Part shown: piece by piece, positions 1 through 64,000 of the stretch | Numbering within the stretch: the first letter of the stretch is position 1 | Layout: each line of letters opens with the position of its first letter | Source of the DNA: an uncultured bacterium | GTDB taxonomy: Bacteria > Patescibacteriota > Doudnabacteria > UBA920 | Reading direction: 5' to 3' | NCBI GenBank assembly: GCA_963749445.1 | Contig: CAVVMJ010000003.1 | Span: 128,715-192,714, forward strand | DNA length: 64,000 nucleotides | Position numbers and translations under genes: made by a program | The notes under the pieces: model-generated | Database searches by the model: none | The model's input: the letters and a program-made list of their open reading frames with translations, nothing else | Told to the model about the DNA's origin: nothing

Positions 1-1831
1 CAGTTTATAAATTTCCCGTTCCAGCTGATTAATGTCTATTTCCGCCTCGCCGGAAAGCCGGTTTAAAAATTTTGCGTCCAGCTTAATGCCACTTAACTCC
101 ATATTCGCCAAAACTTCCACCAGCGGCATTTCTATGTCGTCAAAAATTTTGCGCAGGCCTTCCTTTGAAAGCGCAGGCTCAAATAATTCCTTAAGCCGCA
201 AAGTCATATCCACATCTTCGCAGCAATACCAGCTAACTTTGGCCGGCTCAACTTTGTCCATCGTGGTTTGGGTTTTGCCTTTGCCGATTAAGTCTTCAAT
301 GGGCTGCATTTGGTAGCCCAGCTCGTTAAACGCCAAAGTATCCAAACTGTGCTGGCGGGTTCCGGCATTTAAAAGATACGAGGCGATCATGGTGTCAAAA
401 TAGATAGTGCTTAGTGCTAAGTGATTAGTGCTTAGCACTTGTAAATCATACTTAATGTTATGGCCGATTTTGGCCCACTTTAATTTATTTGATAGTGGGC
501 CATCCGTCGAAGCTTCAGCGAAGGCGGATCCACTCCCACCGATTATCTTTTTTAACTCATCTGACGCCAAAACCAAATCCGCGGGCACATAATAAGCCTC
601 GCCACGCTTTACGCATAAGCCAACGCCGACCAATTTGGCATCTATAATATCCAGGCTCGTGGTTTCCGTGTCAACCGTTAATTCTTTGGCGGATGATAAA
701 ATTTTTAGGAGCTTTTTCCAATTTTGCCGCCGTGTCTATCAGTTCATAATCCTGCTTGCCAATACCACCTCCCCCCGCTTCGCGGGGTACTCCTCCTATA
801 TTAGGAGGAGAGACTCCGTGGTTCTCCGGGGATAACTGCGGCTCGCCCGACGAAGCCTTGGCGTAGTCGGGAGCATTCCCCTCCTGGGACAGGAGGGGTG
901 TCCCGACTTGTCGGGACGGGGTGGTAGTATCATTCCCATTCTTCGGCAATTTATTAAGCAAACTCCTAAACTCCAATTCCTGAAACAGCTTTACTACAAC
1001 CTGCAAATGCGCCGCGTCTAAATCGTACTTGGGAATATCAATGTCCAAAGCCACATTGCAATCTATCACCGAAAGTTGATACGACATCCGCGCCTCTTTT
1101 CCTGGTCAATCAATAACTGCACATCCTCGGCTTTATCCTATTGCCTGTTGCCTCTTTCCCTATTGCCTGATACAAACCATCCAGCGATTTAAATTCTTTG
1201 ATTAATTCCTCCGCGGTTTTTTCCCCAATGCCTTTGACGCCCGGAATGTTATCGGACGGGTCGCCGCGTAAAGATTTATAATCCACCATCTGGTCGGGAT
1301 TCAACCCATAGCGCGCACGCACGGCCTTGGCATCATAAACCACAGTGTCGGTAATGCCTTTGCGCATGGTGTAAACTTTTATCACGTGATTAACCAACTG
1401 CAGAGTATCCAGATCGCCCGTCACAATAATAACTTCGGCCTCGGGATTTTTTTTATGAGATTCATTGCCAAAGTGCCCAAACAATCGTCCGCCTCAAACC
1501 CCTGCTTTTCAAAAATCGGAATGTTCAAAGCCCGCACCACTTCCTTGACGCGCGGAATTTGGTCGTAAAGTTCCTGGTCGGCCTTAACGCGCGTGGCTTT
1601 GTATTCTTTATACTGCACATGCCTAAAGGTAGGGCCGGCCAAATCAAAAGTGCAGGCAATATGCGTGGGCTTAATGTCCGCAATGGCTTTAAGCAGAATT
1701 AAACTAAAACCGTAAACCGCATTGGTCTGCTCCCCGCTTTTGGTGTTTAAAACCGGAATAGCATGGTAGCCGCGGTGGATTAACGCGTTGCCGTCTATTA
1801 ACATGTAGCGCTGGCCTGTGGATTTAACCAT
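1..1831 (-). CDS. polA: DNA polymerase I (5'-3' exonuclease plus start of 3'-5' exonuclease domain); the gene continues past the window start. It has about 4 apparent frameshifts, those sited at homopolymers near 705 and 1450, and an in-frame GC-rich repeat insertion at 764-920.
   Basis: Translations contain MLIDGNALIHRGYHA, the H3TH motif GDPSDNIPGVKGIGEKTA, and DTETTSLD (Exo I) in a third frame that runs to position 1. Frame breaks fall at T5/T8 runs. Confidence 0.8.
764..920. repeat. Family-A GC-rich double-hairpin palindromic element (copy A1), inserted in-frame in polA.
   Basis: ccccgcttcgcgggg + cctcctatattaggagg + gagactccgtgg, followed by the hairpins cccctcctgggacaggagggg and gtcccgacttgtcgggac. 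A near-identical core is present at 46937-47000. Confidence 0.75.
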
Positions 1832-2012: not shown

Positions 2013-4150
2013 ATGCTTGACCACTTAAAAAAGCTCACACTTCCCCCAAAATTCCGCACAAAAACCGCCAAACGCTGGTTTGTAGCCGGGGTTGTCTTGA
2101 TTGGGCTGATGGTTGTTTGGGGAATAGTTTCCGCGCGGCTCGCTAACCGGTTACAACTCGCCTACCAGGCGCAAAGCTCGCCCGTGTGGTACGACAGAAA
2201 CGGCCAATTGTTGGATATTAAACCCAACCCACAGGGCAATTACGACCAATTTTTACCCAAAGTACCGCCGCGCCTGGGCAGCCTGCTATTAAAAAAAGAA
2301 GACCGATTTTTTTACTGGCATTTTGGCATTAACCCTTTTAGCTTAACGCGCGATTTTTTTCGTGGGTAATTTCCGGCAGGCGCAGCGGCTCGTCCACCAT
2401 AACCCAGCAGCTGGTAAAAATTTTGCTGGGCAATGCCAATGACCGTTCGGTCGGTAATAAACTGCGTGAATTTGTCTACGCTGAAAGTTTGGAATACCGT
2501 GCCCCCAAACAGCAAATCTTGCTAATGTACTTAAACAGCGCCTATTTTGGCCCAAACAGCCAAGGCATCAAAGATGCCAGCCTCTACTACTTTGGCGTGC
2601 CGCCGGAAAACTTAAACGACGCGCAAATTCTGTCAATTCTGGCCGCGCTTAACAGCCCGAGCCTTACCTCGCCCACAAATTCTCCCAATTTGGCCCGAGC
2701 CAAAATTCTCGCTAAACATTTTGGCCTTAACATCGCCGCCGCCGACTGGCAAAACATCAGCCTTGCCAAAACCCACAACTACCGCCAAAATCCCGAAAGC
2801 TTTGAACTGGGCAGTTTAAACGTGCCCTGCCAAAATTCCTGCCGGCTGACTTTGGACAGCGACTTAACCAAAAACATCCGCGAAATTTTGCGCCGCAACC
2901 TAAATTCCGCCAGCCTGCAAACCGCAAGCAACGGCGCCGTGGTGGTAATTAAGCTGCCGGAAAACGAAATCCTAAGTTTGGTCGGCTCGCCCGAGCCTGA
3001 ATCCAAAGGCCAGGGGCTGCAGCTTAATATGGCCATCAAACCCCGCGCCATTGGCTCTACGGCCAAGCCGTTTATTTATTTAAACGCGTTTGAGCAGGGC
3101 GCGCGGCCTTACAGTTTGGTGGATGATACGGAAAGGAAGTACCAGCTGGGCACGGGTTTTGATTTTTTCCCGCAAAATTTTGACGGCCAGTTCCGCGGCC
3201 TGGTAACTTTGCATCAGGCGCTGGATAATAGTTTAAACATCCCGAGCGTCCAGGTTTTAAGTTTTGTGGGTTTGGATAATTTTTACGGCTTCCTCAGCAA
3301 AGATTTGCAGTTTAAACCCCAGCAGCCGCTGGAAAATTATGAATTAAGCATTGCCCTGGGGGGCTTGGAAATGGATCCGCTGACTTTATCCCACTACTTT
3401 ACAATTTTCCCGCAAAACGGCTGGCTAAAACCTTTGACTTTGTACCAATCCGGTTTTAATTCTACACCCTACTACCAAACACCCATGGAGCAAATGTCCA
3501 TCAACCCCAAACAAATCGGCAAGGAGGCCGATGTGGAATTGGTTAATAAAATTTTGAACGATAGAGAAACCGGCGTGGACCAGTTTGGCATTAAAAGCAA
3601 TTTGAATTTGCCGTTTACCAATTACGCGGTCAAAACCGGAACCAGCCGCGATTATCACGACAGCTGGACCGTGGGCTACACGCCGGATTTTTTGGTGGGG
3701 GTTTGGATTGGCAACTCAGATAACCGCGCCATGAAACAAATTACCGGCCTGGCCGGCGCCGCCCGCGTCTGGCACGAGGTGATGAACCTAATGTACAACA
3801 CCGCCTACAACAAAAACACGCAATTTAATTTTAGCAAAGTCCAATTTATCCAAAGCGGCGACACCTTAGACTTTGCTTTGGCCGGAGACGACTACAACAC
3901 CGCGCGGCAGATAATGTTAAAACCGCAGCTAATTCTAAACCCCCACGACAACGACCAACTATTATTCCAACCCGGCGCCAGCATCCCCCTCTCCGCCTCA
4001 ACTGATGTCGATTGGACAATCAACGGCCAATTTTTTGCCCACGCTCAAAAAACCTTTTACCCCATCACCAAATCCGGAAGCCTAACTATAAAAGCCACAT
4101 CCACCGACGGAAAAACCCAGCAAGTTACTATTAATATAAACAAAGAATAA
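2013..4150 (+). CDS. Class A penicillin-binding protein (transglycosylase + transpeptidase + C-terminal domain, PbpC-like). Apparent frameshift at a T7 run near 2355.
   Basis: N-terminal TM; EDRFFYWHFGINP and GSSTITQQLVK (transglycosylase motifs, the latter in a shifted frame); the transpeptidase motifs STAKP, SLN and KTGT. Confidence 0.8.
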
Positions 4151-4151
4151 T

Positions 4152-4805
4152 ATGGATACTCTAAATATTTCCTTGCATGGAGCTAAGGAAAAAGAAGTTT
4201 TTGAATTTTTTAACCAAATCGTAAAAGAAACAACGATTGTATTTTTAAAAGATGTCTCTGGCGGGGACAGGATACCCCTTAGAATTCAAATGATTATAAC
4301 TTTTAGCTTAATAGACATTCTTGCAAGTTATTGGTTTGAATATTTAGAAAAGACAGGGACTCAACAAGAAAGATTTTGTTTATGGTATAAAACTTTCTGT
4401 AAAACCTATAGGAATAAAAAATATTTAAAAAATCAACAATGGAATATTCTCAGTAGTTCTCGTTTATATCAACTGAGAAACTCATTAGTCCATTTCTTTG
4501 GACTGTCTTCTAAAATAGAAAACATATACCTATCGCTAGTGCCAAATGATTTACCAGATAATGAAAAAAGTGATTTAGAAAAAAGATTGAACAACCATAA
4601 ATACAAAACCATAGTCATAAAGCCAAACGAATTTCACGAACTAGTCCGAGAAGGCGGCATACTTATGTTGGAGGACTGGCTAGAAAATGTAAGATTGGCA
4701 AACTCTGGAGACACTAATAAAAAAAATGCGCATATCAAGGGAATAAACAAAATATGGGAAAAAATACGATCTGAAGGTGCCTCAATAATTTTAAAAAAGA
4801 AATAA
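4152..4805 (+). CDS. AT-rich hypothetical protein with a HEPN-like Rx4H motif (possible Abi/toxin-like RNase).
   Basis: LYQLRNSLVHFFG contains R-N-x3-H. GC is about 30% against about 47% for the flanks. The start abuts the upstream PBP stop (TAA-T-ATG). Confidence 0.4.
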   Translation: MDTLNISLHGAKEKEVFEFFNQIVKETTIVFLKDVSGGDRIPLRIQMIITFSLIDILASYWFEYLEKTGTQQERFCLWYKTFCKTYRNKKYLKNQQWNILSSSRLYQLRNSLVHFFGLSSKIENIYLSLVPNDLPDNEKSDLEKRLNNHKYKTIVIKPNEFHELVREGGILMLEDWLENVRLANSGDTNKKNAHIKGINKIWEKIRSEGASIILKKK

Positions 4806-4808
4806 CCC

Positions 4809-4837
4809 AAAAGCTCAATCGGCACGGTTGAGCTTTT
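4809..4837. terminator. Bidirectional hairpin terminator between the convergent genes.
   Basis: aaaagctcaatcggcacggttgagctttt. Confidence 0.5.
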
Positions 4838-4862: not shown

Positions 4863-7800
4863 TTACTGCGTGATCGTAAATATCTCCCCGCGGGTGCGGC
4901 CGAAGTGGTCAGGTTGGTAGAGCTCACTGGCGACGGCCGGGAGGTGCTGGAACTGGCCGGGGATTAGCGCGCGGACATAGTAATCGTATTCGTAAACTCC
5001 GGGCTGTAAGTTTTGGTTAAAGAGCATTAAGCGGTCATCGTGGTATTCCACGGAATCCGGAATGAGCGAATCGGTAGTGGTCAAATTGCCGGAATAAACT
5101 TCGTCGGGCAAATCCGCCACGGCCGTGGTGCCGGGGACGGTTGAGCTTTGGCGGACGAACAAGCCTTTAATCCACAGCCACGAGCGCGTAAAGAATCCCG
5201 GGCGCTTAAGCTGCACGGTTTTGGTTGGCACATTTTGTCCGGCCTGTGCATTTTCATATCCGTACGCCGGAGTGGTCAAATACTGCTGGTTTAACGTTTG
5301 GTTTTCCGTGGCCAAATTAAAGTTCACCAATTCCATACCCGCCGGAATAAAACTTTCCACAGTCACAAAATTCCGCGGCTTGCTTACGGTTAAGGTTAAA
5401 TGGGCCCTTAGCACCTGTCCGACTTTGGCCTGATTAAGCGGCGTTTTATTCACGGTATCATCCAAAGCATAAAGTTCGCGCGAAATCGCAAAACCTTCGT
5501 CGCGCGGCGCAATACTGTTAACCGGCAAAAAATACTTTAGCGTCATATCGTAATAAAATCCATTGGTCTTGTCGTTGAGGTTCTGTTTATTAAACTGCAA
5601 AACGCTAAGTTTGTTTGGAGTAAATGACGAAATTGGAATAAAACTTTGCAGGGAATCCAAAATCGTTTGGCTGTTAAATGTAAAATTAGCTTGCGGCTTG
5701 GTATCCAGCAACAAGTTTAAGGTAAAGCTAGACTCGGTCTCCCCTTTCCACTGCAAGTAGTCAACCAGCGCGTCCATAACCGTAACCGTGCCGTCGGTTG
5801 ACCCCCACGAGCCGTCCTTGGCGCGGGAATTTTGCAGCCAGCGCAACATTTTGTCGGTTTCGCTGAATTGGCGCTGGGCTAAACTTTCGGCTTTGAGCAA
5901 CAAAGCCGTATCCTTAACCGGTGTTTCGTAATAATACCACAGTAAATTCTGATCCCCGGTGGTCAAATACGCGCCGCGGCCGTCCACCACCACGCGGTTT
6001 TCCAAAGTCTGGAAAACCTGGTTGCCAAACGTGCTGGATTGTTTTGCCGATGACAACAAAGCCAAATACACCAAAGACAAATTGGAAATATCCTCGTTAA
6101 AGAATTTTGGATCGTTGGCCAAAGCTTGAATTTGCGGCTGCAAAGCAGCGAATTGCTGGGAAGCGGATGGTACGCGGCTAAAAGTATAAGCCGTTAAAAT
6201 CAAACTGTCTTTGCTGCGGTTAAGGTTATAATCACCTGTCCAAGTTTGATAAGCGTAAGCCACAGCGCGGGTTTCGGCCGCGTCGTCAATTTTGTATTTG
6301 GCCTGGCGCAAGTCTTCCAGCGCGTTTAAAACATCCAAAGTCAAATAGTAATCGGACTTCATACCCGGATAATAGCTGAATCCCCCGTCCGAATTTTGGT
6401 TGGACATAATCCGGCTAAGGCCAATACTGACTACGTCGTCGGCCGAGTAAGTTTGGTTGTCAAACTGAACTTGGGGCATTTTAAATTTATCACCCAAGTT
6501 TTTTAAACTGACAAAGCGCTTAACCGTAGCCACGGCCGTAAGCTTGCTGATCATTTGCTCGGTGCAGCCATATGGATAATCCACCAAATATTTCAACGCC
6601 CCGGGCAAAACGCCGGCCAATGTGGCCTGGGCCTCTATTTGCACGCCGCCGCGGTCCGGGATAACATTGTCCGGCAGCCAGACGTATTCGTTGGCCGTTT
6701 GGTTAGTAGTATAGTTGGATGTAGCCACGGCTTCGTAAGTCTGGTCCGGCGTAACCGGAAAACTGCTGTCCACGCTGTCCTGGTACTTGTCATTTTTGGC
6801 CGTAATGTTCAAAGTATGCTGACCGTCCTGCTGCGATGCCGGCGCCACGGCTTTAACGTAAACCGTTTTGGTGTCCCCGGCGTTTAACGTTACGGTCTGC
6901 GGCTTGTTGTCCGGCATTTGGAGCGAGCTGCTGGTAAAGCTGACCTGAAGTGTCTGGGCGCTGCCGGTTTGGTTAAAAATTTTGCCGCCCAAAGCAAAGC
7001 TGTCGCCGGGAATGACAAAGCGCGGCACTAAAGGCGTGACCATCAATTCTTTTTGCGCCTTAAATTCCTTATATCCAACGCCTAATTTGGTATCTTGGGT
7101 GAGTCCCACGCCTTCGGCCTGCCAAGTGGTAAGGTTATCGGGCAAAGTAAAACTGACTTGGGCATGGCCGTCGCTGCCGGTTTGGACATCCGCGTTCCAG
7201 TAAGCCGTATCTTTAAACACCCCGCGTTTTTTGCTGGCCAAATCCTCGGGCGCGGCCCCGCCCCCGCCTTTGGTGCCGGTCGGAATTTCCGCCTCGGTCA
7301 AAATATTTTTGATGTTTGACGAAGTGGTCACACCCAGCGGCCGGCCGTCGTAAAAAAAGCTCACCGGATCTTTTTTGGGATTGCCCGAAAGTGCCAGCAC
7401 GCTCAAATCCGCCACAGCCAAGGAAACATCCGCGGGCACGGGCTTACCGGAAACATCTTTGGTGACGACATCCAAAGTCACCTGCTCGCCGGGTAAATAA
7501 TTATTTTTGTTGGGTGTTACGTCCACGGTCAGAGTTTTTTGTTTGGTGTCTATAAAGAACTGGGCCTGGCCGAATTTAACTTCCGGCTTGGGCGACAGCA
7601 GCAGTACCGTGACAAAAACATTGGGCACGTAAGCGTCCTTGACGTCAAAAGTATAATTATAAAAATTTTGGTTGATGTCTACGATTTGGTAATCCAAAAT
7701 CCGGCCGCGCTCTACCGCAATCAGAGCCTTGGCATGGTCATAAGGCGACTTGATGACTACCTGCCCGGCTTGGCCGACTTCCAGTTTGTTATTGGCCACG

Positions 7801-10800
7801 GCCAAATCCAAAGATTCGTTGTTTTCCGGCTGGACTTCCACGCTGCCCTGGCCGTAAACGTAAAAATCCTGCGTGGCGGTAATGGGATTGCCGCGGCTAT
7901 CGGCTGCCGTAAGCGCGACCTCATACTCGCCTTCCTGCCCGACCGTAAAATCCTTGGAAAAATTGCCGCTGCTGTCGGTCTGGGCCGTAAACTGCTGCAC
8001 CGTGTCTACCTGTTTTTCGGAATGATAGTAATAATTCCCGTCAACCTCCTGGCGCTTAAAATAGTTCCAGGTAATTTTGTTGACTTTGCCGCTAATATTG
8101 CCCACGGAAAGTTCTTTGCCCTGGGTATCCACGGTTTTGATTAAAATTTTATTGGCGTCATTTTTGCCAAAATAGCTCTTGTCCAAATTCACGCCCAAAT
8201 AAAACTGCCCGCGGTGCACAATGAAAGACTGCTCGTTGGACACAGCCTGTCCCGTGGTATTGGTTACGGTTACATCAACCACAAAAATTTTACTTTGATT
8301 TTGATTGTCTATGGAAAACAGTTTACTAAAATCCAAAACTTGGCTTATTTGCGCGTGACCCTGGGTATTTAACTGCGCTTTGCCGCGCAAAATAAAACTG
8401 TCGCCGTAGCCGGCATCGGGCTGGTAATACCAGCCGGCGCCGAACTGGAAATTTTGGTCCTGGTAGCGGTCAAAATAATAATCCTGGGCCGTGACCGTGT
8501 AATCCACGCTGCCGCCTTCCACGGGCACGCCAAAATAATAATTGGCGTCAACGCTTAGGTTGGCCGTATCGCCGGCAATGTATTCGGCCTTGTCGCTCTT
8601 TAAATCAACCTTAAACGGAGATGGCACGTAATCTTCCACGTCAAAAGTATAAATGCCGTCAAAAGCCTGGACGCGATAAGTGCCCAAGGGAGCATCCGCG
8701 GCCAAATGGAACACCGTGTTAAACGTACCGTTTTTACTGATGGCTAAATCCTCCGTGTCCACCTGTTCATTCTTGCTGCTAAAAATCTGCAGGGACGCGG
8801 TCTTGCCCGTATAAATTTCGTAAACGCCGTCGTAGCCAATGCGGTAAAGGCCCTTAATGTCCACTTCCTGGCCCGGACGATAAATCGGTCGGTCAGAATA
8901 AATGTAAGTTTTGTCCCCTCCCTGGTAAGGCGACGACCACTGAAATTTGTCGCTGTAGCCGGACACGATGGTGCTGTCATTGTCCTTGCCGATTACGGCC
9001 GCGCCGTTGCCGGCGTAAGCTTTGGCCCGGGCCACGCCGGAGCTGTCGGTGGTTGCGGTGTCAAACGCCAAATATTTTTTGTCCTGTTTTTGGAAGACTT
9101 GGATGGTGGCGCCCTCTACAGCGTTAAGTGAGCCGATTTGGGTTACCCAATACAAATTGCCCTGGGAAGATGACAACAACTCGCGCTCCGTGGCGCGTTC
9201 GGGCTGGACGGCGGCGGTTCCGGGAGAAGACGAAGTGTCGTCGCTGACTTCCACTTTCTTTTCCTGGGCAGCCAAATTGGTCACGTTCAAAAAAGTGCGC
9301 TCATAAATTGGCGGGCCGGGGCGGGTTTTGCCGGTGTTATAGTCGTAAATCTGCTGGCGCAGCTGCGGGTTGGAAAAACTTAAAACATAATAACCCAAAG
9401 GGCTGGGAACAATATCTGACAACTGCACCTGGAAATAATTCAACGTCCAGAATTTTGGCGGCAGGTCAATGCGCTTGGTCCAGGTCTGCTGGCAGTCCAG
9501 CGCGGAGCCGGCAATACCCGCATCCGGCTGGGTGTCGGGATCCAAATACCCGAGCATGGTTTGGCTGCTTACCTGGCAAACGTGCAAATCCAAATAATCC
9601 AAATTCGTGGCCGCGTAAGTGAGCTTGGTATGGCCGGGCGAAGTAACGTTGTAGCCCTTTTGCAGGGAATTAAAATCGGTGTAAGTGCTGTCAATTTTGC
9701 CGGAAGTAAAATTTAAATTTTGGCTCAAGCTTTGCCCAAACTGGTCAACTAAATTTAACTGCATCTGGTACTCTGTTTGCGGAATTAACCCGTAACGGAT
9801 CCGGTTGTCATACTGACCGGGCGAGCATTTTTCGTCAGCTGATCGTGAGCCAGTCTGCACCTTATAGGCCACATCCCAGTCCCATTTGCCCACGCTTAAA
9901 TTGGACTTGAGCCGCTGGTAAAAATTTTCCGGCTGGGCATCGTCCAGCGGAGAATTGGTGCAAATGATTAATCTGGTAACGTCTGCCGCCTGCTCACCCG
10001 GGGCAGGCGTGGTGCTTAACACCTTTAGCTGGGGGAAAATTTGCAGCGATTCCTTAATCGGGTCGGAGTTTAACTGCAGCCCTTTGGCATTAAAAATTTT
10101 TGTCAGCTCCACGTCAAAACTTTGTCCGGGCTGCCAGTTTTGATCTTTAAAACTTACCAGTAATTGCTTTTTATCGGTTACCTGCTTACATTGCCCGTCA
10201 ACATAAACCTCATTGCCGTCCGCGTCCAATTCACACCTTTGTCCGTAATCCACACGGTCCAAATTTTGCGCCGTAATTTGGGAACGGTCTTTGTCTATCT
10301 CCTCATAAAAATTCAAAACCAGCTGGCCTTTGGGGTCAAACATAGTGGGCTCGACCAAACTGGAACGGGAAGACGAAGCGCTTACTGACTCCACAATGTC
10401 GGGAACCTGCACCGCGGCGCTGCGGCCCTCGGACAAATTAATATCACCCTCCAGGGGAACGGCGCCGCTGATGTCTACCTGGTAATTGCTATTATTGTCC
10501 CAAAATTTGGCGCGGCCGAACTTGTCGGCTTTGGCAAAAATCAAAACCACGGATTTGTCGGTATAATCCGTTAAATTAACCGCCCCGCCCAAGCTCACGC
10601 CGCGGGTGCCATACTGGGTGACAAAGGGCACCGCATTGTTGGTCGCTAAATTTTTTACGGTAATCTGCGCGGTGGTTTTGGCCAAATCTACGGGTTGGTT
10701 AAAATCAATCTTAACCGGTTCGTCATATAATGTTACGCCATCGTGATGGATGGTATTTCCGGCAAACCGCAAGGGCCGCGTGGTAAACTGCGCCTGCGCC

Positions 10801-11525
10801 TGGGGCACAGGCAAGCCGTCCATAGATGTAAAACCGCTCTGTACCAAGACGGTATAATGGCTGGAGCGGGAAAGGCGCGCTGTTGGCGTAAACTCCAGCG
10901 TCCGCGTAGTCGCCCACTTAAATTTTCCGGCTGTTTCCGGAATGATTTTAACGGGCAGGGGCTTGGACTCCTGAACATCCAGCGTGCTTAGCGGCACCAT
11001 GGGCCGGTTAAATTCAATGGTAATGGCATCGGTCTCCGGCGCTTCTGAACCGTCTTTGGGAAAAATCGCGCTAACCTCCGGGTCAACATCGGCCTGGAAA
11101 TTTTGCGCCAAATGCACATCGCCGGCGGCCAAACTGACTTGGTAGTATTTGCCCGACTCCAGTTTGGCTGCCGGCTTAAAGACCAATTCAGTCGCCTTGC
11201 TGCCCACAGACCAGGTTCCTAAAAGTTTTGGGTCAAAACTAATTGCATCCTTGGCCTGATCCGAAGTCAAGCTGACTCCGGGTGGTAAATTAATTACTAC
11301 TGCCGCGCTTTGGGAAATTTTGGCCGCCACCAAGCCCACCGGCTCATCCTGCCATTTGGGCTGAATACTTTTAACATAAAAATAATTATACCCCAGCCAT
11401 CCGGCCGCTGCCACAATTAACACAGCGGCCGTCAACATAACGCCGCGCCTGTGGTGTCGCTTTAGCTGCTGTTTGTCTATTTCTGTCTCCTGAACGGGTT
11501 TTGCCGGAGCATTGGTTTCGTCCAT
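4863..11525 (-). CDS. Bacterial alpha-2-macroglobulin family protein (2220 aa, N-terminal membrane anchor).
   Basis: Thioester motif YPYGCTEQ; N-terminal TM after a basic stretch; very long run of MG-like beta-rich sequence. Confidence 0.8.
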   Translation of the reverse strand: MDETNAPAKPVQETEIDKQQLKRHHRRGVMLTAAVLIVAAAGWLGYNYFYVKSIQPKWQDEPVGLVAAKISQSAAVVINLPPGVSLTSDQAKDAISFDPKLLGTWSVGSKATELVFKPAAKLESGKYYQVSLAAGDVHLAQNFQADVDPEVSAIFPKDGSEAPETDAITIEFNRPMVPLSTLDVQESKPLPVKIIPETAGKFKWATTRTLEFTPTARLSRSSHYTVLVQSGFTSMDGLPVPQAQAQFTTRPLRFAGNTIHHDGVTLYDEPVKIDFNQPVDLAKTTAQITVKNLATNNAVPFVTQYGTRGVSLGGAVNLTDYTDKSVVLIFAKADKFGRAKFWDNNSNYQVDISGAVPLEGDINLSEGRSAAVQVPDIVESVSASSSRSSLVEPTMFDPKGQLVLNFYEEIDKDRSQITAQNLDRVDYGQRCELDADGNEVYVDGQCKQVTDKKQLLVSFKDQNWQPGQSFDVELTKIFNAKGLQLNSDPIKESLQIFPQLKVLSTTPAPGEQAADVTRLIICTNSPLDDAQPENFYQRLKSNLSVGKWDWDVAYKVQTGSRSADEKCSPGQYDNRIRYGLIPQTEYQMQLNLVDQFGQSLSQNLNFTSGKIDSTYTDFNSLQKGYNVTSPGHTKLTYAATNLDYLDLHVCQVSSQTMLGYLDPDTQPDAGIAGSALDCQQTWTKRIDLPPKFWTLNYFQVQLSDIVPSPLGYYVLSFSNPQLRQQIYDYNTGKTRPGPPIYERTFLNVTNLAAQEKKVEVSDDTSSSPGTAAVQPERATERELLSSSQGNLYWVTQIGSLNAVEGATIQVFQKQDKKYLAFDTATTDSSGVARAKAYAGNGAAVIGKDNDSTIVSGYSDKFQWSSPYQGGDKTYIYSDRPIYRPGQEVDIKGLYRIGYDGVYEIYTGKTASLQIFSSKNEQVDTEDLAISKNGTFNTVFHLAADAPLGTYRVQAFDGIYTFDVEDYVPSPFKVDLKSDKAEYIAGDTANLSVDANYYFGVPVEGGSVDYTVTAQDYYFDRYQDQNFQFGAGWYYQPDAGYGDSFILRGKAQLNTQGHAQISQVLDFSKLFSIDNQNQSKIFVVDVTVTNTTGQAVSNEQSFIVHRGQFYLGVNLDKSYFGKNDANKILIKTVDTQGKELSVGNISGKVNKITWNYFKRQEVDGNYYYHSEKQVDTVQQFTAQTDSSGNFSKDFTVGQEGEYEVALTAADSRGNPITATQDFYVYGQGSVEVQPENNESLDLAVANNKLEVGQAGQVVIKSPYDHAKALIAVERGRILDYQIVDINQNFYNYTFDVKDAYVPNVFVTVLLLSPKPEVKFGQAQFFIDTKQKTLTVDVTPNKNNYLPGEQVTLDVVTKDVSGKPVPADVSLAVADLSVLALSGNPKKDPVSFFYDGRPLGVTTSSNIKNILTEAEIPTGTKGGGGAAPEDLASKKRGVFKDTAYWNADVQTGSDGHAQVSFTLPDNLTTWQAEGVGLTQDTKLGVGYKEFKAQKELMVTPLVPRFVIPGDSFALGGKIFNQTGSAQTLQVSFTSSSLQMPDNKPQTVTLNAGDTKTVYVKAVAPASQQDGQHTLNITAKNDKYQDSVDSSFPVTPDQTYEAVATSNYTTNQTANEYVWLPDNVIPDRGGVQIEAQATLAGVLPGALKYLVDYPYGCTEQMISKLTAVATVKRFVSLKNLGDKFKMPQVQFDNQTYSADDVVSIGLSRIMSNQNSDGGFSYYPGMKSDYYLTLDVLNALEDLRQAKYKIDDAAETRAVAYAYQTWTGDYNLNRSKDSLILTAYTFSRVPSASQQFAALQPQIQALANDPKFFNEDISNLSLVYLALLSSAKQSSTFGNQVFQTLENRVVVDGRGAYLTTGDQNLLWYYYETPVKDTALLLKAESLAQRQFSETDKMLRWLQNSRAKDGSWGSTDGTVTVMDALVDYLQWKGETESSFTLNLLLDTKPQANFTFNSQTILDSLQSFIPISSFTPNKLSVLQFNKQNLNDKTNGFYYDMTLKYFLPVNSIAPRDEGFAISRELYALDDTVNKTPLNQAKVGQVLRAHLTLTVSKPRNFVTVESFIPAGMELVNFNLATENQTLNQQYLTTPAYGYENAQAGQNVPTKTVQLKRPGFFTRSWLWIKGLFVRQSSTVPGTTAVADLPDEVYSGNLTTTDSLIPDSVEYHDDRLMLFNQNLQPGVYEYDYYVRALIPGQFQHLPAVASELYQPDHFGRTRGEIFTITQ

Positions 11526-11618
11526 GCCCGTATTTTAGCACAAAATAAATTTTCTGCCCAAGTCTACGCCTAAAATTACTCGCAAACTCTCTTTTGGCGA
11601 TTGTGGTAAAATGTAGGT

Positions 11619-13001
11619 ATGGAAATCTTGGACAAAAAAACAGGCTCAACTACCGGCTGGCTGTTGCTTACCCTAAGCGCATTAATTATTATCCGCATCC
11701 TGCCCATCCTTAAATCCCCGTTTTCCACTTACGGTTATGACTTTGGCTTTTACTCTTACGAGGCCGGTCACGCCGGACAGTTTCATTTTATTGACTTGTT
11801 CAACAACGCCGTTTGGGGCGGCTACAACAACCCGATTTTTTTGATTGGCTCGTGGCTTCACATTCCGTCCGCGCTTTTGGTCAGCGAGTTTTATTTTTTG
11901 GCGGCCGTGGCTTTGGGCCTGGCAATTTATTTTTGGATGAAATTAAAAAGCCAAGCGGCCGGAATTTTTGCCTGCCTGCTGGTTGCGGCTTCGTTTGTCC
12001 AAACCAGCGGATATTTGATGTATCTTTGGAAAAATATTGTGGCATTGCCGCTTTTGGTATTAGGTTTTAAATTTTTGGAGGAAAAAAAATATTGGCAACT
12101 GGCAGTTTGCACCGCGGTCATTTTGCTGCTTCACCGTACCACGGCCATTGTCTTTATTTCATCGCTGATAATTTACGGAATATGGCAGTTCATCCAACAA
12201 AAAAAATTTCGGCTTTTGGCCGGCCTGTTTGCCGCAGCGCTGATTTTAGCCGCAACCGGATTTTACGCCTTACATCTTAAATCTTTAATCTTTAATCTAA
12301 TTCACAACAACAACTACTACGTAACCACCGGCCTGTTTATGGAAGGGTCTAACTTTTGGTTAATCTGGTGGCCATTTTTGCTTCTGGCTTTACCGGGAGT
12401 GTACCTTTACCTCAAAAAACGCCAACACCCGATTTTGCCCGTATTTACGGCAATTTTGCTGATTTGGATAGCGTTTAAATTTCCCTTCTACCGGCGCATG
12501 CTGCTTTATTTGGATTTATGTTTGATAGTTTTCGCCGCGTACTTTTTAAGCCTGGTGGATTATTCGCGAAAATTTATGAAACTCGCGCTCGGCGTTATTG
12601 TCGCCGTGCTGCTAATCCGTTCCGCCGATTACGCGCTGTCCCAAACGCCGCTGATTACCTCCCAAGAAGTCAGCGAAATTAAAAACTTCCGCCCGCCCGG
12701 CGGCCCCGGTTTTATCCTCGCCGTTTCCGCCAACGACGCGCCGTGGCTTTTAGCTTACGCCAATCCGGCCCAGCGCTTAGGCGCGCCCGGCCTTCTGGAA
12801 GACCCTCACACCTATCAGGAATGGCAAAACTTTTGGCATGGCCAGGACCAACGGCAATTTTTGTCTTACTACCCGCGGCCGCTGTATTTTTACCAGCGCA
12901 GTTACCGCCTGCCGCCGTTTGGCGTTACCCAATGCCTCACTCCGCTGACGCCGAATTTTTCCCAGCTAAACTACGATTGCCTGGAAAAATCCCTGCCGTA
13001 A
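11619..13001 (+). CDS. Polytopic membrane protein, possibly a GT-C fold (PMT/ArnT-like) glycosyltransferase.
   Basis: About 11 predicted TM helices, a first extracytoplasmic loop with acidic/aromatic residues (YGYDFGFYSYE), and a soluble C-terminal domain. Confidence 0.35.
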   Translation: MEILDKKTGSTTGWLLLTLSALIIIRILPILKSPFSTYGYDFGFYSYEAGHAGQFHFIDLFNNAVWGGYNNPIFLIGSWLHIPSALLVSEFYFLAAVALGLAIYFWMKLKSQAAGIFACLLVAASFVQTSGYLMYLWKNIVALPLLVLGFKFLEEKKYWQLAVCTAVILLLHRTTAIVFISSLIIYGIWQFIQQKKFRLLAGLFAAALILAATGFYALHLKSLIFNLIHNNNYYVTTGLFMEGSNFWLIWWPFLLLALPGVYLYLKKRQHPILPVFTAILLIWIAFKFPFYRRMLLYLDLCLIVFAAYFLSLVDYSRKFMKLALGVIVAVLLIRSADYALSQTPLITSQEVSEIKNFRPPGGPGFILAVSANDAPWLLAYANPAQRLGAPGLLEDPHTYQEWQNFWHGQDQRQFLSYYPRPLYFYQRSYRLPPFGVTQCLTPLTPNFSQLNYDCLEKSLP

Positions 13002-48962: not shown

Positions 48963-49118
48963 TTACCCGCCTAAATTTTGCCCTAAAAATTGGGCAAGAT
49001 TAATTATTTAGATAACGGTTGTTAATCAAAAGTTTTAGATTCCACGCTGCAAAATTTCGGCAGGTTAGTCTATTCTACTAAAATAATTATGCAGCATTTT
49101 TTCAATCTGGTTCCGTCC

Positions 49119-49325
49119 CTACCCGGTTTTTAGCCATTGTTCCCGCACAAAGGCATCATGTTTGTCTAAAAAAGCTTCGTAATATATTAAACGGAAAGGT
49201 TTCCTGTTCTTTGTTGATTCTATACCACCTTTATTATGTAATGCAAATCGCTGCTTTAGGTTATTTGTACAGCCGATATATAGCCTGGTATCTTTTAAAC
49301 TTTGTAAGATATATACATAGTGCAT
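49119..49325 (-). CDS. GIY-YIG nuclease family protein (YhbQ-like), possibly C-terminally truncated.
   Basis: YVYILQS...LYIGCTNNLKQRFALH. Confidence 0.55.
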   Translation of the reverse strand: MHYVYILQSLKDTRLYIGCTNNLKQRFALHNKGGIESTKNRKPFRLIYYEAFLDKHDAFVREQWLKTG

Positions 49326-49798
49326 AAGCTAACTTATTTTATCGCAAATTTTGCCCGGCGACAAATTAACCCGCCGAAACTTTACGATGGATTTGTGGAA
49401 GCGAGGGAGAGTTAACAAATTTTTGATGCGGGTTTACCCACCGAAACTTTGCACAATTTATTAAAATTATTTGGTTGTTCAGACAAAATTATCTACTTAG
49501 ACTACCTAAACAACCCTCGCAAAGTTTAGGTGGGTAAAGTAAAAACCCCAATCTTGATAGCCCGCCCCGTCAGGGGAATTTGGGCATTGAAAGGGGTCTT
49601 TAAGAAAAGCTAGAAGAAGCTTGTGAGCTATAAGAAGTATCGAAATAAGCCTTATAGCCAACCGCCCTAAAAGTAGGGGTGGTAATCCCGATTTATCGGG
49701 ACAATTGGTTGATAAATTGTTTTTGTTTTTGTTTCTTCTTATGAAGAACTCACTTTTCTATAGGTATTATAGCAGATTTTTTGGAGGTTGTCTAGAGG

Positions 49799-50989
49799 CT
49801 AGTTTGTTTCCGCCAAAGCGCCGCGTCCTGTATTGATGACAATTACCTTACTATTTTTAGCTACCAAACCTTCCCGCCAACGTTTCATGTATAATGCGAG
49901 CCCCGCAGCAGCAGAAGGTTCGGTTGCAATACCAAGCGGCTCGCCTTTCTTTTTTAGAAGGTCATAAGCTTCTTTTATTTCGGCTTCTGATACTTTGTAA
50001 ACGCCTGTTTCAAGATGGGTGTACCCATCTTGTTTAAGTGAAGTAAGTCGATTTGTATCATAATGGATGTAGGGTTTTACAGGGGCTGCAAGTTTGTCGG
50101 CGATGCTGGGGAAACTTTCAGGTTCCGCCCCTAGGATTTTAACGTTACCGACCCGGAAAGATTCAGATTTAATCTGGTTCGCTATTTCTGACTCATCTGA
50201 GGTGTCCAATAAAAATTGCCGATCGACTAAACCTTCAAAGGTCGCCCCGGATCCATACGAATCATATATCTCATTTGGCTGTTCTAAAAATATTTCTTCA
50301 CCCAATACGTAATAGAACATTCTCCAAGGTCTTTCCGGGTCGTCTTCTTGGTTGGCACTGGTTAAGTCAAAGCCGGCATCGTTGTTGGTAAGTTCCATAA
50401 TTTGGCCTGGCTCCAGAGGGCTTTCTTGGGCTGGCATGTCAGTAAAGGCGTTTGAAGAAAGATCAGTTAGATATAAATCTGCCCGCATGGTTTTTAGTTT
50501 TATCAAAGTTTCGGGGGATACGTGTTTATCTAGCAATAGCTTTGGCGGAGGTAATTCAAAAGCTTCAAATGCGTTTGCCAGCGCTCTGCCGGCATTACCG
50601 GCGGTGATGATGGAAAAACGGGGCAGGTATTTAGTTTTGAGTTTTTCCTCATAACTTGGATCGTTGGCTAAGGTTTCCAGATAGAAGCGGGCTTTGTCTC
50701 GGTAAACACCAGCGCAGGCTCGGGCCATCCTATCTTTCATAGTTCCAGTAGGATTTACCGATTGGTCCCCTTCATTTTTTATAAATATTTTGCCAAAGCC
50801 ATCTTGAGACAGATCAAGTTCAACCAGAGGGGTTTTTGTCCCTTCCGATTCCAGGCCAACAGGGATTTCTTTAGCCCATCTTTGTGCCAGCTCCCTGGAC
50901 CAGAATTGTGGATAAGGAATTTCTTGCACAATTTCGCGTTTTGATTGCCAATTGGCTTCGCCAATTGGAAAATCTTTTATTTCTGTCAT
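49799..50989 (-). CDS. PLP-dependent enzyme of the tryptophan-synthase-beta/threonine-synthase fold, with a large internal insertion.
   Basis: NPTGTMKDRMA (PLP-lysine motif) and ITAGNAGRALA (Gly-rich loop). Confidence 0.5.
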   Translation of the reverse strand: MTEIKDFPIGEANWQSKREIVQEIPYPQFWSRELAQRWAKEIPVGLESEGTKTPLVELDLSQDGFGKIFIKNEGDQSVNPTGTMKDRMARACAGVYRDKARFYLETLANDPSYEEKLKTKYLPRFSIITAGNAGRALANAFEAFELPPPKLLLDKHVSPETLIKLKTMRADLYLTDLSSNAFTDMPAQESPLEPGQIMELTNNDAGFDLTSANQEDDPERPWRMFYYVLGEEIFLEQPNEIYDSYGSGATFEGLVDRQFLLDTSDESEIANQIKSESFRVGNVKILGAEPESFPSIADKLAAPVKPYIHYDTNRLTSLKQDGYTHLETGVYKVSEAEIKEAYDLLKKKGEPLGIATEPSAAAGLALYMKRWREGLVAKNSKVIVINTGRGALAETN

Positions 50990-60546: not shown

Positions 60547-61730
60547 TTATTGATTAATGTGCGCGACTTTGGCAACCGGGAAGCCGTTAAAGTCCGTGGC
60601 CGAGGCTAAAGTGTAAGCGCCAATATTTTCCGCGTAAAGCAAATCGTCAATTTGCAAATCTTCCGGCAGTTCATCAGCCAGTGAGATTGTATCAAAAGCG
60701 TCGCAGGTCGGTCCAAAAGTGGCGCAAAGTTTGAGTTCGCCATCTTTAAAAGCGTGAAGCGGGTAATGCTGGTGGTCATAAACCTGGCCGGAAAAAGTAT
60801 GATACACGCCATCATCAAGATAATAACAAGTTTTGCCGTCGCGAATGGATTTGCCGATAATTTTTGTCACCAAGGTGCAGGCTGTGGCCACCATAAATCG
60901 GCCAGGTTCGGCAATAACCTGGATGTTGTCTTTGCCGAACAAGCGTTTAATTTCCGATATTCAATTTTTTAGCCAAAGCGGAAAATGATTTTACATCCGG
61001 TGCGTATTTAACCGGAAACCCGCCGCCAATATCCAAAACTTTTTTCTTTTTGCCCTCTTTATCCGTAAAACCAATTTCAAAATTCCGCAAAGCAGCTTCC
61101 TTCAAAATAGAATGCGCAAAATTCAGCGCTTGCAAATAGTTGTCAAAATTATTGCATTGACTGCCCACGTGAAAACTAATGCCTTCCACATCCAAACCCA
61201 TGCCAATGGCCTCGGCAATTAGATCCACGGCTTCGCCGGGATGCGCGCCAAATTTGGAAGACAGCTCCACCATACTTCCGGTGTTGGGCACGCGAATGCG
61301 TAAAACTAGCCCTACGTCCGGCGCGTGTTGCTTGATTTTTTTCAGTTCCTCAATATTGTCAAAAGTTACCAAAATTTTGTACGGGTTTAATTTTGTCAAA
61401 ACTTTGAACGGCTTAATAGTGTTGGCGTAAATAATTTTGTCCCAAATAAAATCTTGGCGTTCTTTGTCCGGCCAGGTTTCAATATTTTTATAAACAAGCT
61501 TGAATTCGTAAATTGAAGCCACGTCAAAGCTGGAGCCAAGGTCAAACATGGTTTTAATTATCTCAGGATTGGAATTAGCCTTAACCGCAAAATACGGTTG
61601 CACATCCGGCAATTTTTCACGGAATTCCTTAAAATTGTTGCGCTTAGGATTTCGTGGTCAACCACAAACAGCGGCGTGCCGTTTTTAGCCGCCAATTCCT
61701 GTAAAAGTTTTTTTCGTTCTTGGGTCATAG
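60547..61730 (-). CDS. Ornithine/lysine/DAP decarboxylase family protein (fold-III PLP), with 2 apparent frameshifts (about 60945 and about 61640).
   Basis: PYFAVKANSNPEI, GFHVGSQ, DIGGGFPV, and the C-terminal beta-barrel half in another frame. Confidence 0.7.
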
Positions 61731-61880
61731 AATTTAAATTACTAATATATTTAAATGGTATTGATGATAGCGAATTTCAATACGAATACGGTTTAAGATT
61801 AGTATTATTTGTACTATTCGCATGCATTAGTATATTGGTATCACATTAATAATCTATGGAATAAACCGGAAGTTTTCAAA

Positions 61881-63311
61881 TTGCCAAACATCGGCAGTGG
61901 GTTTGGTTGGCTGGATTTTCTTTAAAATAGACTACGCGGTTTTTAATGGGAGTCCAGTCCGAGGCCTTGGAAATAAAATTGCCTAAATAAGGTTTAGCAA
62001 TATCCAGTACAAAGTCGTGCGGTAAATCATCGGGTAAATTCAAATCCCCTTTTCGGGTTTTCTATCATCCAAAGTACGCGCTGATAACACCCGAGCGCGA
62101 CCTGCAAAGTTGTGGCATTTTGTCCCGGCGCCAGCCTTCTGGCTTCTTCTATGGAAAGATCGCTGCCTGTCCACCAGGAATTTATTCATGGCCCATAAGC
62201 AAAGCGCCTAAGATATCCGCGCCAGTAGTAATTTCATCTTCCATAATTCTTAATTTTGGCGGCAAAACATAATTTCTGCCGCGAAGTTCGCAAAGGGAAG
62301 ACAAAGTTTCGTGGCAAGGCATATATGCGTAATGCACGGTGGGACGAAAAACGGCCTTTTCTCCTTCCCAAACTGTAAGTCGATCTGATAATCCAAAAGC
62401 TTCGCCATGGCGGATAACCATGCCCACAATTTCCTGGTCCGGAATCCAGGACCTGACCCAGGTGTTCATACCCATTTGCGCCAAAGCGATTTGGTTTTTT
62501 GGGCCATATGGCGGAACATGCGCCAGAGTTCGGGAAGTTTTTGCTCATGCGTACCCCAGCCCATTTCCGCCGGCGCCGTGCCTTCTTCCCGAAGGCCTTC
62601 TATGCTCCAGGTGCCCACGAATTCATCCACTTCCTTGGGCCGATTGGTAATTTGCGTGTCGCGCTCGCTGCAATGAATGACTTTGACCTTAGTTTTTGGC
62701 CAAGCAAATTAAATTTGCGGGATTTGATTAATTCTTCCAGTTCTTCTTTGTCTTTCCCGGTTGCTTTTCCATCAGCTATCATTTTATTTGCAATATCAAT
62801 CAGCCCTTGTTTTACAAAATGTGAAATCAGCCCTGGATTAGCGCCATGGTCAACCACTGCAGTAGGCGCGTTCTTTCGGCCAGTCTTTGATCATTTCGCG
62901 GAGTTTCATTTGCCGCCAGTAAAGCGATTTTTCAAACGGACTGTCTTTAAATAATCCCTTCTAAAGAATCCCAAACCTCCACCGAAGTATTTACGTACAA
63001 AACATTATGGTCATGGCACCAGCCAATAATATCATTGGCGCCGATATTCCAGGCCAAATCAATAATCAGGCCGCCATTGTCCGTGTATTTGGCAAGTTCT
63101 TTGCCCATATTTTCCGGGGTAATCCGGTTGTCGGACAAATTTTACGCCTTTATCCGTAAATTTTTTTAAACTTTGGCTTTGTCTTCAAAATCCATAATGG
63201 TGACATTTTTCGGGTCAACTTTCAAATTCTCCAAAAGAACCGGCAAAGTGCATTGCGAAACCGAGCCATAGCCGATAATTAAGATTTTGTGGTTGAATTT
63301 TTTCTTAGTCA
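61881..63311 (-). pseudogene. hss: Homospermidine synthase-like gene (saccharopine-dehydrogenase fold), broken into at least 5 frame fragments.
   Basis: N-terminal ILIIGYGSVSQCTLPVLL, then VDHGANPGLISHFVKQGL and AYMPCHE...LPPKLRIMEDEITTGADILGALLMGHE, in different frames. Confidence 0.45.
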
Positions 63312-63336
63312 TTTTTTTGGTTGCACTTTTTTTGTA

Positions 63337-63445
63337 CCATTCCGAGCGAGTGCATCCGAGTCGAGGAATCTGTTACCCATCGATTATTGATAAACAACAG
63401 ATCCCTCCACTCGCCCTCAGATGCATTCGGCCTCGGTCGGGATGG
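63337..63445. repeat. Family-D palindromic element (copy D2).
   Basis: ccattccgagcgagtgcatccgagtcgaggaatctgtt...aacagatccctccactcgccctcagatgcattcggcctcggtcgggatgg. Confidence 0.6.
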
Positions 63446-63826
63446 AGACAAGACTAAATTAATTAATGTGAACAAAAAAACGCGATTCAAATTGAATCCG
63501 TTTACAATTAACCCGCCAAAAATTTTTGTGGCTGAGTTGAAGCAGTCAGTTTTATCGAATCATTGTTCAAATTTTTATTAATTTTGTCTGGAGAAAAAAA
63601 TTTTAGGCGGGTAAAATTAAGCCATTGAATTGACTTGCTGCTTGGGATGAAATAGTCGTGCGGATAATTGTTCTGGTCACCTTTCCGGAGTTAATAAAAC
63701 ATTAAGCCTAATTTACATTAAACGGTTGGGTTTGTCAAATAGTTTTTAAACCTTTTTACTATTTGTAAGGAATAAAAAATATTTGATAAAATTGCAGTAT
63801 ACATCATTAGCACCAAAGTATGGGAA

Positions 63827-64000
63827 CTAAATATGACGTAGATGAAAAATTTTTTGAAAAATGGACTCCTGTTATGGCGTATGTCCTGGGATATTTGTAT
63901 GCCGACGGCAGTTTGGAAAATGCGCCATATCTCCGGGGTAAGTATCTGCGGCTTACCAGTACAGATAAAGACCTTGTTGATTTTACAAGAAACGCTTTGA
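63827..64000 (+). CDS. LAGLIDADG-family homing-endonuclease-like protein (5' part; continues beyond the window).
   Basis: VLGYLYADGSL motif. Confidence 0.55.

Follow-up and report, generated by a model that had tools for sequence, protein, structure and literature searches.

The gene and the PbpC/A2M junction

The DNA analysed here, referred to below as the window, is a stretch of 64,000 nucleotides from contig CAVVMJ010000003.1 of an uncultured Doudnabacteria bacterium (positions 128,715 to 192,714, forward strand), and our focus is a single protein-coding gene at 4152..4805 on the + strand, which encodes a protein of 217 amino acids (aa). It follows a gene for a PbpC-like class A penicillin-binding protein (PBP; 2013..4150, + strand) and faces a gene for a bacterial alpha-2-macroglobulin (A2M) of 2220 aa (4863..11525, - strand). 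The gene begins with ATG, is free of stops according to the list of open reading frames (ORFs) and the translation, and an independent Logan assembly contains the identical, unbroken gene. Its start one nucleotide past the PBP stop (TAA-T-ATG), pointed out already in a preliminary description of this DNA, can be read directly from the sequence: the TAA of the PBP-like ORF occupies 4148-4150, a single T follows and the ATG stands at 4152. A promoter consensus scan revealed no promoter-like site upstream of the gene. Between the convergent gene ends lies a perfect 10-bp inverted repeat, AAAAGCTCAA/TTGAGCTTTT, with a 9-nt loop (4809..4837, assigned to neither strand). According to RNAfold, the repeat grows to a 14-bp stem, the energy of -26.1 kcal/mol being that of the whole 93-nt stretch folded. 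The consensus terminator scan skipped this hairpin because its loop exceeds 8 nt; judged from its sequence, the hairpin is probably a bidirectional terminator.

The same description had reported about 30% GC for the ORF in surroundings of 47-50%, and our values agree with it: the GC content is 0.309 in the ORF versus 0.473 in the whole window. In 300-nt bins it falls to 0.29-0.33 over 4051-4800, with 0.44-0.55 on both flanks. The difference is even more pronounced at third codon positions (GC3), with 0.28 in the 217-aa ORF versus 0.60 in the PBP and A2M genes. Among the 33 window ORFs of at least 200 aa this one has the lowest GC content, 3.7 standard deviations under their mean.

To see the junction in other genomes, we compared it in relatives located via their PBP proteins. 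In a Doudnabacteria metagenome-assembled genome (MAG) with a 66% identical PBP (L019), PolA, PBP (+) and A2M (-) are ordered as in the window, the gap between PBP and A2M is 122 bp (11100-11223) with a terminator hairpin inside, and the slot is empty. In a second relative (L020, PBP 67% identical) the slot, at 11100-12551, holds a methyltransferase together with a BrnT/CopG toxin-antitoxin pair. In a third (L021, PBP 68% identical) it holds a 248-aa gene (2604-3407) that starts 4 nt past the PBP stop; on comparison this gene proved unrelated to ours. Two other small ORFs follow the PBP gene in L018 (3189-4348, PBP 84% identical), where the sequence is GC-rich (0.575) and the A2M side is not reached. 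The coding ends of PBP and A2M are conserved right to the stop codons, and the cargo bounded by both genes, as in the window, L020 and L021, has a GC content of 0.31-0.37 between flanks of 0.45-0.50. Since variable, low-GC cargo thus lies between conserved gene ends, the 217-aa gene is an insertion in a recurrent cargo slot, and the PBP/A2M junction is an insertion hotspot in related genomes of the candidate phyla radiation (CPR; Patescibacteria). The earlier proposal of an acquired insertion is therefore supported by both the foreign composition and the slot that is empty in L019 and differently filled in L020; a gene conserved with host-like composition is not what these relatives show.

The position of the gene had also been compared with enterobacteria, where the yfhM-pbpC pair was said to be contiguous. 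This is correct for E. coli K-12 as far as contiguity is concerned, but the two genes are co-directional there, whereas the PBP/A2M pair is convergent in the window and in L019, L020 and L021. A functional link of the gene to PbpC and A2M is not borne out by the comparison. Its tie to the two genes is positional, not functional, because relatives in 11 other loci adjoin unrelated genes, with no conserved partner among them.

Family, conserved residues and HEPN likeness

Contrary to the initial view of the gene as an orphan, it has relatives in about 100 clusters. A word-indexed search returned 10 relatives with 39-54% identity, and phmmer over 1.84 billion cluster representatives returned 99 homologues at E<=1e-3, of which 19 reach E<=1e-30; at 50% identity the family amounts to ~100 clusters. 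When the family profile was used to search the large database again, the gain was only ~8 proteins, none of them annotated by Pfam. The named hosts are Patescibacteria/CPR (Saccharibacteria, Buchananbacteria, Paceibacterota, Nomurabacteria), the exception being one MAG labelled Gammaproteobacteria. When ~185,000 species-representative genomes were scanned using a 10-sequence alignment, confirmed relatives were found in 9. The window itself holds no second copy. Compared with Pfam, NCBIfam, PADLOC and PDB sequences, the window protein had no match over threshold, and in PADLOC-DB v2 it matched 0 families at E<=10. Judged by these sequence searches, the family is undescribed, predominantly confined to Patescibacteria/CPR and unrecognised by Pfam, NCBIfam, PADLOC and PHROGs.

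Family members come in two forms. The SEC-C zinc-binding motif (PF02810) is present at the N-terminus in 22 of 87 aligned members, while the window copy represents the short form, which is devoid of it. SEC-C motifs are known from SecA-type proteins, and here SEC-C seems to be a module that recurs promiscuously at the N-termini of accessory proteins. It also accounts for a number of database matches. PHROGs families matched by 18, 16 and 15 members carry no annotation and probably owe these matches to SEC-C; likewise, the ~22 PADLOC matches to E2 and PDC-S12 models equal the SEC-C-bearing members in number and are attributed to the motif. Two plasmid proteins were considered as homologues and rejected, since their hhalign likeness is limited to SEC-C. 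One is a 400-aa protein of a Sphingomonas plasmid (L022, 2920-4122), which adjoins a VapBC pair and has only SEC-C in common with the long-form members; the other is a 275-aa protein of a Bacillus plasmid (L023, 2489-3316), where the common part is again the N-terminal SEC-C.

Conservation within the family is concentrated in a few residues. In the alignment of 87 sequences, where mean column identity is 22%, only M1, F51, N88, R109 and H114 are kept in at least 90% of members. R109 and H114 are the ends of the R-x4-H motif reported earlier as HEPN-type, and that motif is indeed present: in the window protein it reads R109-N-S-L-V-H114 (codons 4476..4493, + strand) within LYQLRNSLVHFFG (residues 105-117, including LRNSLVH), and it is predicted to be catalytic. 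Each of the two residues is found in 86 of the 87 members, and the single one lacking H114 looks degenerate. Position 110 is occupied by N (54 members), C (16) or S (12). Taken alone the motif is weak, as R[NQHD]xxxH occurs five times in the 22,147 aa of the window ORFs, or about once per 4,400 aa; it is meaningful because it is invariant across the family and not because it occurs in a single protein. Two other positions stand out, namely D55 (codon 4314..4316, + strand), which is D or E in 86 of the 87, and the nearly invariant N88 (codon 4413..4415, + strand; N in 86 of the 87).

The AlphaFold2 model based on the 87-sequence alignment has a predicted local distance difference test score (pLDDT) of 96.0 and a predicted template-modelling score (pTM) of 0.91, compared with a pLDDT of 80.6 for the model based on 10 sequences. 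In the former, long helices 2-31 and 43-65 are followed by a helical segment (71-99), helix 102-115 and a loop (116-124); the C-terminal part consists of a small beta-alpha-beta unit (125-156) and two long helices (158-184 and 188-208). R109 and H114 are placed at the C-terminal end of helix 102-115, just before the loop, D55 in the second long helix, and N88 between the second helix and the motif helix. HEPN domains have a conserved Rx4-6H with a polar residue after R, situated at the end of core helix-3 or the start of the loop to helix-4, and HEPN families commonly keep a second acidic residue in helix-2 near the motif, often as Ex3[KR] (Anantharaman et al. 2013, PMC3710099). In the model, both the motif site and the acidic residue of helix-2 appear to match this published anatomy, our assignment of the core helices being model-based; D/E55 lies in helix 43-65 but outside any Ex3[KR] pattern.

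Profile comparisons point in the same direction. The consensus of a Nomurabacteria-type subfamily (P0062/79/86), which phmmer links to the window protein (E 1.3e-5) and which the family profile recovers at 1e-40, matched PF18730 (HEPN_Cthe2314) with E 3.5e-5 and 24.3 bits, under the cut-off of 27.1. The match spans consensus residues 45-138 and profile positions 57-149 of 174; an earlier version of the same consensus gave E 1.6e-4. The consensus of a second subfamily matched PF18736 (HEPN pEK499_p136) with E 1.9e-3 over ~90 residues including the motif. Several members matched HEPN families singly at E 0.006-0.014: three matched HEPN_Cthe2314 (PF18730), three HEPN_Apea, two RiboL-PSP-HEPN and one the pEK499_p136 HEPN; the families matched in this range include PF18730, PF18739 and PF18735. 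Altogether, five Pfam families were matched by at least two of the 87 members, namely SEC-C and four others, three of which are HEPN. In PADLOC, one Cas13a model was matched weakly by 8 members (best E 1.3e-3), and CARF_HEPN, Cas13-ApeA and a second Cas13a model by one member each, also weakly (E>=1e-3). The low-scoring Foldseek matches in the PDB include the HEPN structures 7ae6_A, 2hsb (TM 0.48-0.52 on the target) and 5yep_C. In BFVD the best match was an unnamed viral protein of 170 aa (E 2e-3, TM 0.62 on the target). A protein of an Arthrobacter phage, likewise uncharacterised, was also listed, and no annotated HEPN protein was matched significantly.

Based on the motif position and the sub-threshold profile matches, we consider it probable, though not demonstrated, that the family belongs to the HEPN superfamily. 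To this extent the original HEPN assignment stands, whereas its confirmation by a match at a curated threshold or by a significant fold search was not obtained. If so, what is new would be a branch, mainly from CPR hosts, that had gone unrecognised and is set apart by a C-terminal elaboration of its own and by fusions to SEC-C.

Genomic context, proposed function and alternatives

The genomic context of the family was examined in a sample of twelve loci with family members, the window included. When all ORFs of 70 aa or more within 5 kb were compared all against all by BLASTP, these loci turned out to share no neighbour, smaller ORFs and RNAs not having been systematically screened. At this level a conserved partner or antitoxin was not found, which is also the outcome of the check for a partner antitoxin or MNT gene in relatives that had been suggested earlier, and an adjacent MNT gene was seen in none of the twelve loci, the neighbours in the window being PBP and A2M. 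In ten of the twelve the family gene stands close behind an upstream gene in the same orientation. Outside the window, RNase H, peptide deformylase and several proteins without annotation are among those encoded just upstream. Family genes have a GC content of 0.29-0.39 in hosts of 0.32-0.50 and fall below their surroundings in 12 of 13 loci, which is consistent with spread from low-GC CPR donors. In the MAG labelled Gammaproteobacteria (L005, 5259-5875 and 5874-11717), smpB, tmRNA, tRNA-Leu and tRNA-Gly are directly followed by a tyrosine integrase; the integrase island holds a family member, with a SocA_Panacea gene 210 nt downstream of it. Two other family copies lie at most ~2.2 kb downstream of tRNA genes. 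Common flanking repeats or a cassette-like structure around the family genes were looked for and not seen.

We favour, with moderate confidence, the explanation that the gene represents a stand-alone, HEPN-like RNase branch that was horizontally acquired and is probably defensive. By analogy with HEPN proteins, its product would be a metal-independent endoribonuclease acting without a partner, with an active site made of R109, H114 and probably D55 and N88. Following the mechanism put forward for HEPN domains (PMC3710099), H114 would be the general base, with R109 stabilising the transition state. D/E55 and N88 may assist in a composite site formed by a homodimer in which two R-x4-H motifs face each other, the kind of site that has been reviewed for HEPN enzymes and is seen in RAZR. 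HEPN homology is inferred from the sub-threshold matches, and RNase activity, dimerisation, defence role and trigger are inferred as well; the ORF with its composition and family, the invariant residues, the place of the motif in the model, the variable slot and the absence of any common neighbour are shown directly. The gene would have arrived from a low-GC donor into the gap between the convergent PbpC-like and A2M genes. It would probably be transcribed by read-through from the PBP gene, because there is no promoter-like site, the start lies 1 nt past the PBP stop and the hairpin comes after the gene. Its role would probably be in conflict or defence, as a latent RNase that arrests translation upon a trigger such as phage infection. 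Since no partner gene was found, restraint would have to be intrinsic and release would come from the trigger. Control would lie with the conformation or oligomeric state of the protein itself, no partner antitoxin being involved. For roughly one in four members, SEC-C is a candidate sensor or targeting module.

A number of observations weigh against this explanation. None of the HEPN profiles was matched at the Pfam gathering score, and the window protein and the consensus of its own subfamily had no HEPN match. Foldseek searches of the PDB using both models gave nothing significant, and PDB profile searches with the whole family and two subfamilies gave nothing relevant (matches to NQO1 and a de novo TIM barrel were spurious). 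In hhalign, only the R-x4-H motifs of the family and the HepT toxin SO_3166 (sequence checked against 5YEP/6M6U) align, in register, and the probability is 1.3%, which is insignificant. A minimal HEPN domain is only about half as large as the family protein. PLSDB plasmids, INPHARED phages and IMG/VR viral contigs contained no relatives, so that the link to mobile elements is indirect. Finally, a solo RNase without regulation would be toxic.

Several of these observations would be expected if the protein were a helical protein of some other fold and function, in which R109 and H114 bind a ligand or phosphate or take part in other catalysis, and in which the likeness to HEPN is convergent and limited to the short motif. 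All HEPN profile matches are below curated thresholds, no structural search was significant, and a motif of this kind turns up by chance about as often as computed above. However, the sub-threshold matches cover 80-95 residues and connect two subfamilies to two different HEPN families, three of the four non-SEC-C Pfam families matched by at least two members are HEPN, and both the motif position and the acidic residue of helix-2 appear to agree with published HEPN anatomy. We therefore regard a different fold as rather unlikely, even if it is the most serious of the alternatives.

The protein might instead be a housekeeping CPR factor, involved in RNA processing or associated with the ribosome, with low GC content resulting from amino-acid and codon constraints. 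The gene does often stand co-oriented behind housekeeping genes, is AT-rich in every host and, in its long form, carries a motif found in SecA-type proteins. Moreover, some HEPN families act in RNA processing (PMC3710099). However, a factor of this kind is difficult to reconcile with confirmed relatives in so few of the species-representative genomes, with absence from the equivalent site of the closest relatives, with the lack of synteny and with a copy in an integrase island. In addition, the difference in GC3 arises at synonymous sites and so cannot be put down to protein constraints. A housekeeping role thus seems very unlikely. We give slightly less credence still to a toxin-antitoxin module of two genes, HEPN/MNT-like or of another type, in which the gene would encode the toxin and the antitoxin would have been missed as a small ORF, an RNA or a distant gene. 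In favour of it, HEPN toxins usually come with an MNT or other antitoxin as partner (PMC3710099), a BrnT/CopG pair fills the L020 slot and a SocA_Panacea-domain gene follows the L005 copy. Against it, the twelve loci share no neighbour at the level examined, the adjoining genes in other loci are of the housekeeping kind (RNase H and peptide deformylase, for instance), and the window leaves no space for a partner, since the gene is tightly enclosed by the PBP stop on one side and the terminator hairpin on the other.

Returning to the stand-alone, HEPN-like RNase, the family is outside every curated family tested and by analogy would be functionally most like solo HEPN defence or toxin proteins. 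Four known systems are instructive for comparison. The best profile likeness, over ~95 residues from helix-2 to past R-x4-H, is to the Cthe_2314-like HEPN family (PF18730; PMC3710099). These proteins are bacterial, stand-alone and uncharacterised, have an Rx4-6H motif and are described with 'no architecture or operon detected' (PMC3710099). Their length is also similar (174 profile positions versus ~200 aa in the present family). However, the score stays under 27.1, is reached by one distant subfamily and has no counterpart for the window protein; unlike the Cthe_2314-like family, the present one occurs mainly in Patescibacteria and has an N-terminal SEC-C in a quarter of its members.

For the long, SEC-C-bearing members, the architecture of RAZR (PD-T7-4) offers a plausible working model. 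RAZR, which brings about abortive infection as a single protein, joins an N-terminal zinc ribbon to a divergent, HEPN-like helical domain (DUF4145) in a single gene without antitoxin, and its R and H are essential; it is non-toxic until phage ring proteins assemble it and dimerises or oligomerises to form the RNase site (PMC13017515). The two differ in that neither DUF4145 nor a PD-T7-4 model is among the top families listed for the 87 members, in the zinc module (SEC-C, missing from the window copy, versus a Cys4 zinc ribbon) and in R-H spacing (4 versus 7, R146/H154 in RAZR). Rugutis, a single-gene Abi-like system of a Lactococcus plasmid, is activated by the phage terminase large subunit (PMC11381338, PMC12184496). 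Compared by description only, it resembles the long-form members in having an N-terminal SEC-C followed by a confidently predicted domain without a significant PDB match, but its length is 359 aa versus 217-260 aa in the present family. A tblastn search of PLSDB plasmids with family members gave matches to the SEC-C motif only and no Lactococcus relative. HepT of the type VII HEPN-MNT system (SO_3166, PDB 5YEP) shares the R-N-x3-H motif in register, and 7ae6 and 5yep are among the weak Foldseek matches. It differs in showing no significant sequence or fold similarity and in that the family is without an adjacent MNT gene in the twelve loci; moreover, the present protein exceeds HepT in length by ~80 residues and includes a beta-alpha-beta insert and a further two helices at its C-terminus.

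One may be tempted to go further and propose a new single-gene abortive-infection or defence RNase, found almost only in CPR, latent without an antitoxin, triggered in its long form through the SEC-C sensor, and spreading as a promoter-less cassette to operon 3' ends and to hotspots such as PbpC/A2M. In this complete form we hold the idea to be possible but doubtful. A stand-alone HEPN toxin in a variable genomic slot would not be a new principle, as such cases are well known. The interest lies rather in the lineage. CPR bacteria make up a large share of bacterial diversity, and little of their repertoire of conflict and defence genes has been charted, since most accessory genes they carry are without any match. 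The present family is compact, with ~100 clusters, and has a clear candidate active site (R109, H114, N88, D/E55); its AlphaFold model is very confident, yet without a significant structural neighbour. If the protein is indeed a solo HEPN RNase, it would add a new branch to the superfamily on which Cas13, Csm6, Abi and toxin-antitoxin effectors are built, and would provide small (~25 kDa) RNases from an unexplored lineage. If the single-gene defence role is also correct, it would give a first handle on the innate immunity of episymbiotic bacteria with reduced genomes. The cargo slot at the PbpC/A2M junction could also guide the search for further CPR defence genes.

Flanking and split genes of the window

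Both neighbours of the 217-aa gene are what they had been taken for, a PbpC-like PBP and a facing A2M. The PBP gene is frameshift-split in the assembly into 2013-2369 and 2423-4150. The first piece encodes a transmembrane segment (membrane anchor) and EDRFFYWHFG, the start of the transglycosylase domain; the second matches Pfam Transgly (profile positions 81-168 only) and Transpeptidase. PBP homologues are single proteins of ~700 aa with a PbpC-type BiPBP_C domain, and the nearest match of the window PBP is a protein of Candidatus Doudnabacteria (66% identity), which marks the window as part of a CPR genome. A metagenome scan using the PBP protein returned only one locus, which was irrelevant. 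The A2M protein shows the Pfam domains MG2, bMG6, A2M_BRD, A2M, TED and bMG10. It is a single 2220-aa ORF in the window, while in the Logan assembly of the same organism (L001, 2510-9170) it is in three pieces of 376, 1063 and 793 aa; the assemblies therefore differ in indels.

Two further genes are split in the window. The 5'-3' exonuclease domain of PolA is divided into two overlapping ORFs, 1113-1484 and 1424-1831 (- strand), and the polymerase domain was not seen in the scanned ORFs beside these pieces; the relatives L019 and L020 have an intact PolA of 980-990 aa at the corresponding position. An Orn/DAP/Arg decarboxylase is frameshifted into ORFs for its N- and C-terminal domains, 60547-60942 and 60947-61612 (- strand). 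The three split genes (PBP, PolA and the decarboxylase) suggest either indel errors in the assembly or gene decay. Apart from the 217-aa gene, three 1-kb bins, 49001-50000, 61001-62000 and 63001-64000, are also GC-poor (0.38-0.39 versus 0.47 overall), and ORFs of the PALP family, RibD_C/DHFR-like ORFs and the decarboxylase ORFs are found near the first two of them.

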